Below are positions 10,600-10,800 of a stretch of 64,000 nt of DNA, in pieces. The stretch is taken from contig WGMZ01000024.1 in the NCBI GenBank assembly GCA_016124735.1, positions 1 to 64,000 on the forward strand. Direction: 5' to 3'. The notes beneath the pieces were generated by a model. It was not told where the DNA came from. It made no database searches and worked only from the letters and a program-made list of their open reading frames with translations. Every line of letters begins with the position of its first letter. The stretch's first letter is position 1. Source of the DNA: Bacteroidota bacterium (GTDB taxonomy: Bacteria > Bacteroidota > Bacteroidia > UBA8524). The position numbers and the translations under genes are program-made.

Positions 10600-10800
10600 A
10601 AATTTGATTTGTGTCCTATGCTGGTTGTGGGTTCGAATCCCACTCCTTATACGTAAGGATAGCTTAATCTGGTAGAGCAGCGATGTGTAACGCAGGTTCG
10701 AATCCTGCACTCAGTTTAGGTCTGAGTTTGATTAGTGGTAAATCAACATCCATGGACTGATAATCCATCACTGGGGTCGCCAATCCCCCAACTAAATGGC
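10600..10800 (+). ncRNA. tRNA-like structured RNA candidate (Y-RNA/YrlA-like tRNA mimic or tRNA remnants)
   Basis: Consecutive hairpins read off the sequence. GTGGG-TTCGAAT-CCCAC at 10627-10643. TCCTTA-TACG-TAAGGA at 10644-10659. D-arm-like GCTTAATCTGGTAGAGC at 10662-10678. GCAGG-TTCGAAT-CCTGC at 10692-10708. ACTCAG-TTTAGGT-CTGAGT at 10709-10727. ATGGA-CTGATAA-TCCAT at 10751-10767 (anticodon-loop-like, GAU). TGGGG-TCGCCAA-TCCCC at about 10772-10790. No canonical cloverleaf can be assembled. Confidence 0.3.

Follow-up and report, generated by a model that had tools for sequence, protein, structure and literature searches.

Bacterial Y RNAs and the transfer RNA (tRNA)-like domains found in them are known mostly through the protein Ro60. 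Here we describe two tRNA-mimicking modules located at positions 10615-10750, on the forward strand, of a 64-kb stretch of contig WGMZ01000024.1 from a Bacteroidota bacterium (GTDB UBA8524). The modules lie upstream of genes encoding a slipin (an SPFH/Band-7 protein) and the RNA ligase RtcB; the whole 64-kb stretch is referred to as the window, and all positions are positions in it unless a related locus is named. YrlA is a bacterial Y RNA that resembles a tRNA and occurs in Salmonella, Mycobacterium and others (PMC4201824; structure in bioRxiv 10.1101/312249). Its tRNA-like domain is modified by TruB and DusA, and YrlA of M. smegmatis, which has a 7-bp stem, is cleaved by RNase P (PMC4201824). 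It has also been proposed to be a competitive inhibitor of an anticodon nuclease (PMC7790460). According to Wang et al., YrlA is "occasionally" found beside a Band-7 protein; the part of their text that deals with b7a-tRNA (for a tRNA associated with band-7), a tRNA-like RNA predicted beside Band-7 and RtcB by Burroughs & Aravind in 2016, refers to it as unvalidated (bioRxiv 10.1101/312249). Translational stress in Anabaena induces rtcB together with a slipin gene and a tRNA array, whose tRNAs have been suggested to soak up toxin RNases like sponges (PMC8421152, PMC10272220).

The class to which the modules belong is itself not new, as it was predicted before and its sister YrlA is well studied. 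The element described here is a Ro-independent, tandem YrlA-type, or band-7-associated, mimic in the probable leader of a slipin-rtcB operon that is presumably under WYL control, and it is general to Bacteroidota.

Structure and conservation of the two modules

Positions 10615-10750 (+) hold two tandem, circularly permuted tRNA-like domains. Both follow one plan, namely a closing stem, a variable loop of 4-5 nt, a T-arm (GGTTCGAATCC), a closed acceptor hairpin, two nucleotides and a D-arm. This plan can be read as a tRNA running from its variable loop round to the start of its anticodon stem, with a loop capping the acceptor and the anticodon arm replaced by a short closing stem. The parts are listed here with the scores of R1, a covariance model built from 44 aligned T-arm/closed-hairpin/D-arm units, the units of the window being left out:

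10615-10686 (+): module 1 (R1, 59 bits; Rfam YrlA model, 51.5 bits)
10619-22 / 10679-82 (+): closing stem of module 1, weak, UGCU / AGCG
10623-26 (+): variable loop of module 1, GGUU
10627-10643 (+): T-arm of module 1, GUGGG-UUCGAAU-CCCAC
10644-10659 (+): closed acceptor hairpin of module 1, UCCUUA-UACG-UAAGGA
10660-61 (+): U8 and A9 of module 1
10662-10678 (+): D-arm of module 1, GCTT-AATCTGGTA-GAGC (as RNA, GCUU-AAUCUGGUA-GAGC)
10682-10750 (+): module 2 (R1, 34 bits, E 3.4e-12)
10682-86 / 10746-50 (+): closing stem of module 2, GAUGU / ACAUC
10687-91 (+): variable loop of module 2, GUAAC
10692-10708 (+): T-arm of module 2, GCAGG-UUCGAAU-CCUGC
10709-10727 (+): closed acceptor hairpin of module 2, ACUCAG-UUUAGGU-CUGAGU
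10728-29 (+): linker of module 2, UU
10730-10744 (+): D-arm of module 2, GAUU-AGUGGUA-AAUC
10745 (+): A26 of module 2

Module 1, when folded alone, gives a four-way junction. The minimum free energy (MFE) structure of 10680-10752 is exactly the four-way junction of module 2 (z = -2.0), and the T-stem of this module shows compensatory changes in close relatives. With a T-arm, a D-arm and a capped acceptor, and with no anticodon arm, each module should therefore take the L-shape of a tRNA, yet be neither chargeable nor decoding.

Related loci were collected using slipin as the anchor (80 loci, one genome per species), and four closer relatives were fetched separately, which gave 84 sources; single loci are referred to by L numbers. 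A pattern scan found T-arm/closed-hairpin/D-arm units 300-650 nt upstream of slipin in nearly all of these loci. R1 matched the window at 10615-10686 (E~7e-20 for the whole window) and, with filters off, at 10691-10745, and nowhere else in its 64 kb. Over the 84 sources it gave 226 matches, all of them on the slipin strand. The strong matches (E<=1e-14) number 80, are present in 76 of the 84 sources and each lie 296-918 nt before the slipin start. Among the eight sources devoid of a strong match, three are short of upstream sequence, three have matches of 43-48 bits at the expected place, L021 has one of 21.8 bits there, and L044 has none.

Covariation was assessed in an 80-sequence alignment, with a control in which each 3' partner was slid by 1-3 columns. 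Standard pairs fill 94.1% of the cells in comparison to 41-50% after sliding, 20 of the 21 pairs have changes on both sides (10-15 when slid), cells with double-sided changes amount to 478 (43-104 when slid), and the covariation score is 0.74 (0.09-0.20 when slid). None of 500 shuffles matched the observed values, and all four module helices covary. Positions U8, A14, T54, T55, C56 and A58 are invariant (80/80), while G46 is present in 72 and A21 in 78 of the 80 sequences. The Levitt pair between position 15 of the D-loop and position 48 of the variable loop is G-C in 65 and A-U in 9 of the 80, a result as good being obtained in none of 10,000 shuffles; module 1 of the window is the A15-U48 variant. 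Acceptor stems are 5-8 bp long across loci and 6 bp long in the window. What is conserved is a tRNA-shaped fold without a free acceptor end and, in the window, without an anticodon arm; the way in which it is linked and oriented with respect to slipin, and in most cases to RtcB, is fixed.

Each hairpin listed for this region in the original prediction, which was made from the window sequence, is present where it had been placed. What had been overlooked are the acceptor hairpins at 10644-59 and 10709-27 and the second D-arm at 10730-44, so that two complete modules stand where a jumble of arms had been seen. One explanation offered at that time was a Y-RNA-like mimic that keeps the D- and T-arms and lacks an anticodon stem. 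It agrees well with the YrlA-like architecture, with YrlA being the best Rfam match and with the covariation over 80 sequences, and RtcB is encoded two genes downstream, as the suggested check for co-purification with RtcB had anticipated; the comparison with homologous loci that had been suggested as a check thus supports the structure.

The other explanation offered was that the arms are decayed tRNA genes, the functionless remnant of a former tRNA cluster or of an old integration site. The sequence is plainly tRNA-derived, real tRNAs or tRNA arrays occupy the equivalent upstream position in relatives, and both ARAGORN and the Rfam tRNA model fail on the modules, all of which speak for decay. 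However, position and strand are kept phylum-wide (in 76 of the 84 sources), the helices carry 478 cells with double-sided changes and are 94% paired, the tertiary-contact positions are invariant, the Levitt pair covaries, and no integrase or island boundary was identified among the open reading frames (ORFs) scanned around the locus. The kept position and strand, the compensatory changes and the invariant tertiary positions therefore refute this explanation, and we assign it next to no probability.

Comparison with tRNAs, YrlA and other known RNAs

ARAGORN found no gene for tRNA or transfer-messenger RNA (tmRNA) in the 64-kb window, relaxed thresholds yielding low-score junk only, which bears out the earlier claim that the region holds no canonical tRNA. 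Rfam gave no match in the window at gathering thresholds, and its tRNA model scores the modules at 24.9 bits, below the cutoff of 29, with a partial alignment. A conventional tRNA, composed of the D-arm of one module and the T-arm of the next one, was considered and rejected: such a reading fails because its acceptor strands pair at 46%, which is the chance level, and because the gap is too short. From a D-arm to the next T-arm there are 13 nt in the window and 11-18 nt in 46 of the 51 adjacent pairs, while about 23 nt are needed for an anticodon arm; this arm is thus indeed missing between the first D-arm and the second T-arm, as had been predicted. The accompanying statement that the acceptor strands do not pair is true of the conventional reading, but it does not apply to the modules, since each T-arm directly precedes a closed acceptor hairpin. 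Borderline matches of the Rfam tRNA model in four relatives (30-37 bits) arise from the same conventional-order misreading.

An additional tRNA-like feature is found just 3' of module 2:

10752-10768 (+): anticodon-arm-like hairpin, AUGGA-CUGAUAA-UCCAU, with an invariant stem and a variable triplet

The corresponding motif, [AG]TGGA-N7-TCCA[TC], is present in 28 of 81 leaders, where it is about 18-fold denser than in the rest of the loci. Its stem is almost invariant, and its loops obey the anticodon-loop rule Y-U-NNN-R-A, the triplet differing by locus. In the window and its three closest relatives the triplets are GAU, CAA, CCA and UCA; a triplet so variable among relatives is therefore not a decoding anticodon. 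The hairpin had been correctly recognized as anticodon-arm-like and its motif is conserved, but the GAU that it presents in the window is not fixed. In 42 of 73 loci the D-arm of the last module directly precedes a canonical anticodon arm with a Lys-, Asn- or Leu-like loop, and in those loci the module is a four-armed tRNA opened in the variable region.

In many loci a D-arm of class II (Leu-type), GGCGGAAUUGGUAAACGC, is found in the second module, and a canonical anticodon arm with the loop UU-NNG-GU follows it. The triplets seen in this loop are UAG, CAG, AAG, UGG, UUG, UCG, ACG and AGG, so that the first two bases vary. Examples are L014 3409-3480, L019 3503-3575, L033 3449-3520, L041 2436-2512 and L069 3531-3600; once, in L069, ARAGORN calls such a module a 96-nt "tRNA-Arg".

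Real tRNA genes are located on the same strand just upstream of the modules in many relatives, and there are none in the window. They were seen in L010, L018, L024, L031, L037, L048, L051, L054, L056, L059 and L066, some as arrays of 10-19 tRNAs. A lone tRNA-Tyr(GTA) is present in L004, L005, L014, L016, L017, L019, L020, L022, L023, L030, L032 and L045, and in L004, L005, L016 and L032 it stands between the operator (see below) and module 1. The upstream tRNAs and the 10-19-gene arrays fit a tRNA-maintenance island.

It might be assumed that the modules are permuted tRNA precursors, which RtcB would ligate and whose acceptor loop RNase P, together with the CCA-adding enzyme, would open, giving working tRNAs under stress. 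The permuted tRNA genes of Cyanidioschyzon mature in a similar way, and they have the same order as the modules, with the 3' half (T-arm and acceptor 3' strand) ahead of the 5' half (acceptor 5' strand and D-arm). The canonical anticodon arm directly after the last module in 42 of 73 loci, the adjacent ligase gene and the real tRNA arrays beside the modules in many relatives are also in favor of this idea. On the other hand, Cyanidioschyzon-type genes have all arms, a fixed anticodon and a 7-bp acceptor, whereas neither window module has an anticodon arm in its junction and the acceptors there are of 6 bp. Moreover, acceptor stems of 5-8 bp come with no discriminator or CCA context, and the triplet of the free hairpin shifts among close relatives, which a decoding tRNA would not tolerate. 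We consider such precursors very improbable.

Within 10250-11100 the best permissive Rfam match is YrlA (RF02553), which aligns with 10601-10707 at 51.5 bits (E 1.6e-10), the gathering score being 69. The T-arm/stem-loop/D-arm core aligns well, whereas the outer stems align poorly, with non-canonical pairs. The gathering score is not reached in 23 related loci either, as there was no match at gathering in 16 loci, and a further set scored 35-47 bits. The modules have the same order of parts as YrlA, i.e., closing stem, V region, T-arm, closed "AS" stem-loop and D-arm (PMC4201824), and have in common with it the nucleotides of the T- and D-loops, the logic of the tertiary pairs and the RtcB operon setting. 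They differ from it in several respects: YrlA has a long terminal stem and the Ro-binding motif GNCGAA, both absent from the window element; it has one module, in contrast to two or three in tandem; it lies between rsr and rtcB, and not in a leader before slipin; and the regulator of its operon is RtcR/sigma-54, not a WYL protein.

A scan for the Ro-binding motif in the form GNCGAA(N0-1)G found no GNCGAA within 10301-11040. A Ro60/Rsr (TROVE) gene, which for YrlA is expected within about 4 kb, was not found among the flanking genes, 10 other window ORFs of 450-575 aa, or the called genes of L081 and L084. With no TROVE in the genes scanned and no GNCGAA, Ro60 was rejected as a partner. Very probably, the module domain shares its origin with YrlA's tRNA-like domain. 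The window element is nevertheless not YrlA by the YrlA family's own criteria, because it scores below gathering, has neither GNCGAA nor a long terminal stem, and has no Ro60 gene near.

As to b7a-tRNA, it is described as strongly resembling authentic tRNA. The likeness to our element lies in the arrangement: the window modules are 292 nt upstream of slipin, with RtcB next, and this arrangement is found in 76 of the 84 sources. The difference is that the window modules are permuted and lack an anticodon arm, although their arms and tertiary positions are tRNA-like. The comparison with b7a-tRNA is one by description only, and that RNA may equal either the permuted module or the tRNA-Tyr upstream of module 1.

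The L-array regulon of Anabaena (the trn operon, rtcB, the slipin gene alr0740 and the repressor TrcR) resembles the Bacteroidota loci in combining extra tRNAs, RtcB, slipin and a repressor with repeat operators at the promoters. However, its tRNAs are conventional and chargeable, its regulator is a ribbon-helix-helix protein and not a WYL one, and permuted mimics are not reported there, while the window has no real tRNA.

Probable leader and promoter, and neighboring genes

The order of features in the window is a WYL+WCX regulator gene (-), a 722-nt gap, slipin, RtcB and an ORF of 316 aa:

8739-10313 (-): WYL + WCX regulator gene, 524 aa, with a probable N-terminal helix-turn-helix (Pfam WYL 3.3e-08, WCX 5.3e-06; PADLOC WYL 3e-18)
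10350-10372 (no strand): dyad operator TCTGCGCA-AAAAGAC-TGCGCACT, family consensus ACTACGCA-N7-TGCGTAGT, putative site of the WYL regulator
10384-10387 (+): TTTG box, invariant in alignments, about 16 nt past the operator; putative Bacteroidota -7 element
10392-10614 (+): leader 5' domain, structured, about 220 nt, strongly conserved in the nearest clade only (nhmmer matches in L001, L081, L082 and L083 only)
10772-10800 (+): putative H-type pseudoknot; stem A UGGGG 10772-76 / CCCCA 10786-90, stem B GCCA 10779-82 / UGGC 10797-10800, A-rich loop 3 at 10791-96
10801-11035 (+): leader 3' part, 235 nt from the pseudoknot up to the slipin start, conserved in close relatives only
11036-12133 (+): slipin (SPFH/Band-7) gene, 365 aa (Pfam Band_7 3.5e-25)
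12175-13584 (+): RtcB RNA ligase gene, 469 aa (Pfam RtcB 1.4e-84)

A block corresponding to 10330-10400, placed between the gene of the WYL regulator and the leader, was found in about 30 loci by nhmmer and by inspection of the sequences. Its coordinates are, for instance, 3098-3157 in L005, 3249-3303 and 5155-5217 in L007, and 2917-2967 and 5188-5245 in L025, with about 25 more loci; the second copy in L007 and L025, the two loci that have one, is located before rtcB. A sigma-70 promoter scan gave no match, and in Bacteroidota such a scan is expected to come up empty. Judging from the sequence, the dyad and the TTTG box are probably the operator of the WYL regulator and a Bacteroidota-type promoter, and we infer a transcript start near 10392-10396. 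The leader, from the promoter to slipin, would then measure about 640 nt.

In the 5' domain of the leader (10392-10614), RNAalifold predicts several hairpins with compensatory changes, and there is no Rfam match. Elsewhere, the slot of this domain is filled by tRNA-Tyr, tRNA arrays or a GOLLD-like RNA. In both Flavobacteriia loci GOLLD-like RNA lies upstream of the modules, in L051 between the tRNA array and the modules; the full-model matches to GOLLD (RF02032) in L039 (2565-3042, +) and L051 (2714-3215, +) score 136 bits (E ~1e-35), just under the gathering score of 150. No GOLLD match was found in 10250-11100 of the window at E<=10. The 3' part of the leader has RNAalifold hairpins with a few compensatory changes. 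Ahead of slipin no convincing terminator was found, the weak candidate at 10966-85 being paired by RNAalifold into a longer structure; the modules are therefore probably inside the leader of the operon. The Y RNAs of Salmonella likewise sit inside an operon, rsr-yrlBA-rtcBA (PMC7790460). The A-rich sequence AAAAUGUAAAAAUAGAUUGAUAUG (11010-11038), which runs into the slipin start codon, is near-invariant in L001, L081, L083 and L084 even at 56% protein identity, and this suggests a conserved translation-initiation or regulatory site.

The hairpin at 10772-10790 had been taken for a third T-arm, a view which we could not uphold: it lacks a T-loop motif, is not matched by R1 and is stem A of a likely pseudoknot. 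The pseudoknot was assessed by positional controls and a permutation test, the length of loop 3 being too variable for MAFFT-based pair counting. Its layout is present in 50 of 73 leaders, in comparison to 5-12 of 73 in six kinds of controls, which included shuffled sequence, the reverse complement, coding sequence and neighboring stretches. Outside the window it usually reads AGAAG-(stem B 5' strand)-CUUCU-UAAAAA-(stem B 3' strand). Complementarity between the loop and the downstream sequence is 4.46 bp within a locus and 3.38 bp across loci, a difference that none of 2000 permutations reached, and stem B changes from GCCA/UGGC to GCCU/AGGC in L001. It is thus likely that 10772-10800 forms a pseudoknot. 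Its 4-5-bp P1, a P2 made with bases of the P1 loop and an L3 rich in A recall the aptamer of the preQ1-I riboswitch. In that riboswitch, however, P2 and the ligand-contact bases are conserved, whereas P2 varies freely here, so that the resemblance is one of shape only; Rfam gave no preQ1 match in 10250-11100 at E<=10.

This arrangement raises the possibility that the modules act in cis, either as RNase P/Z processing or stability signals, or as a sensor that is cleaved into products to which the WYL regulator would respond. Parallels for tRNA-like processing signals are tRNA punctuation and MALAT1-mascRNA. The modules do lie between a presumably regulated promoter and slipin, with no convincing terminator, and a pseudoknot with an A-rich loop is located 3' of them; WYL domains are ligand sensors, and PADLOC places the WYL protein of the window among CRISPR-associated signaling proteins. 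In some loci the acceptor hairpins reach 7-8 bp and have long loops, and it was a YrlA with a 7-bp stem, that of M. smegmatis, that RNase P was found to cut (PMC4201824). However, the acceptor stem has no set length (5-8 bp across loci and 6 bp in the window), and this suits RNase P poorly; nor would a processing signal need two or three complete tRNA folds in which the tertiary contacts are invariant. A cis-acting role is, moreover, compatible with a mimic acting on proteins and does not exclude it. As the explanation of the modules, it is a serious rival, although it seems to us rather unlikely.

The WYL(-)/gap/slipin/RtcB order is retained in close relatives. More broadly, at least 28 of the 84 loci have a WYL homologue that lies upstream of slipin and on the other strand, and 51 of the 84 have an RtcB homologue on the slipin strand, mostly downstream of slipin. 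The slipin homologues are annotated in their sources as "slipin family protein". Among solved structures, the slipin matches only generic stomatins and the WYL protein matches none. The N-terminal part of slipin, the C-terminal part of the WYL protein and the 316-aa ORF gave no significant match to any extra domain, and no defense-system matches were found for slipin, RtcB or this ORF. A phage origin was rejected, as no slipin relatives were found in viral contigs.

The 316-aa ORF (13662-14612, +), which lies 3' of rtcB, matched nothing in Pfam, NCBIfam or PADLOC; tblastn found no relative of it in the 84 related loci, and it is probably outside the system. Directly after slipin, on the opposite strand, L019 (5132-5208, -) and L039 (5132-5207, -) have a Flavo-1 RNA (RF01705) above the gathering score. 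In L049, which comes from a Sediminibacterium metagenome-assembled genome, a tmRNA gene (1008-1379, +) precedes slipin by about 2.6 kb on the same strand, possibly by coincidence.

Possible role of the modules

We propose, with moderate confidence, that the modules are tandem YrlA-type tRNA mimics acting as the RNA partner of the repair machinery, as a decoy for tRNases, or as both. In this scenario, the divergent WYL regulator would control the promoter, and the leader would be transcribed together with slipin and rtcB. Upon induction of the operon, the leader would present a non-functional tRNA look-alike, which tRNA-recognizing proteins may bind. On one hand, the module RNA might be a partner or handle of the slipin-RtcB repair machinery, analogous to a Y RNA with Ro60. 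On the other hand, it might, alternatively or additionally, compete as a decoy for toxins that cleave tRNAs, with RtcB meanwhile resealing the damaged tRNAs.

Several points weigh against this proposal. The closing stem of module 1 is weak, with 3-4 pairs, and its G10682 is shared with the stem of module 2. When both modules are folded together, the near self-complementarity of GGUUCGAAUCC makes the MFE structure favor a duplex between the two T-arms; we rejected this duplex as not conserved and treat it as an artefact, since it is fully compatible in just 18 of 51 adjacent module pairs. RtcB lies outside the fetched flank in 33 of the 84 loci, so the linkage may be to slipin rather than to RtcB. 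Co-transcription of the modules with the genes and the protein partners of the module RNA are inferred from synteny. Finally, our results are compatible with a scaffold role and a decoy role alike.

A more elaborate idea is that the leader stands guard against tRNA-cleaving toxins and that the modules are tRNA-shaped baits placed beside repair genes, some of them displaying anticodon loops with lineage-diversified triplets. A bait cut by an invading anticodon nuclease would yield a fragment with a 2',3'-cyclic phosphate, this fragment would be the WYL ligand that induces slipin and RtcB, and RtcB would reseal both the bait and the cellular tRNAs. We find this idea quite improbable; if true, it would amount to a damage sensor that resets itself, a counterpart to the way in which RtcR/CARF senses tRNA halves.

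Returning to the proposed tandem mimics, the modules are an element that current annotation (ARAGORN and the curated thresholds of Rfam) overlooks. The covariance model and the dozens of cultivable hosts, among them Chryseolinea serpens DSM 24574 (L002), Pedobacter caeni (L068), Zobellia uliginosa (L018), Tenacibaculum ovolyticum (L069) and Algibacter lectus (L075), make the predicted "band-7-associated" RNA testable, and the dyad described here supplies a candidate operator for the WYL regulator. Slipin loci become linked to spare tRNA arrays and, in two genomes, to a GOLLD-like RNA. A tRNA-shaped domain is kept without Ro60, multiplied in tandem and tied across the phylum to a slipin-RtcB operon that is presumably under WYL control; the job of the mimic is thereby separated from Ro60 and connected with RNA repair and with SPFH proteins.

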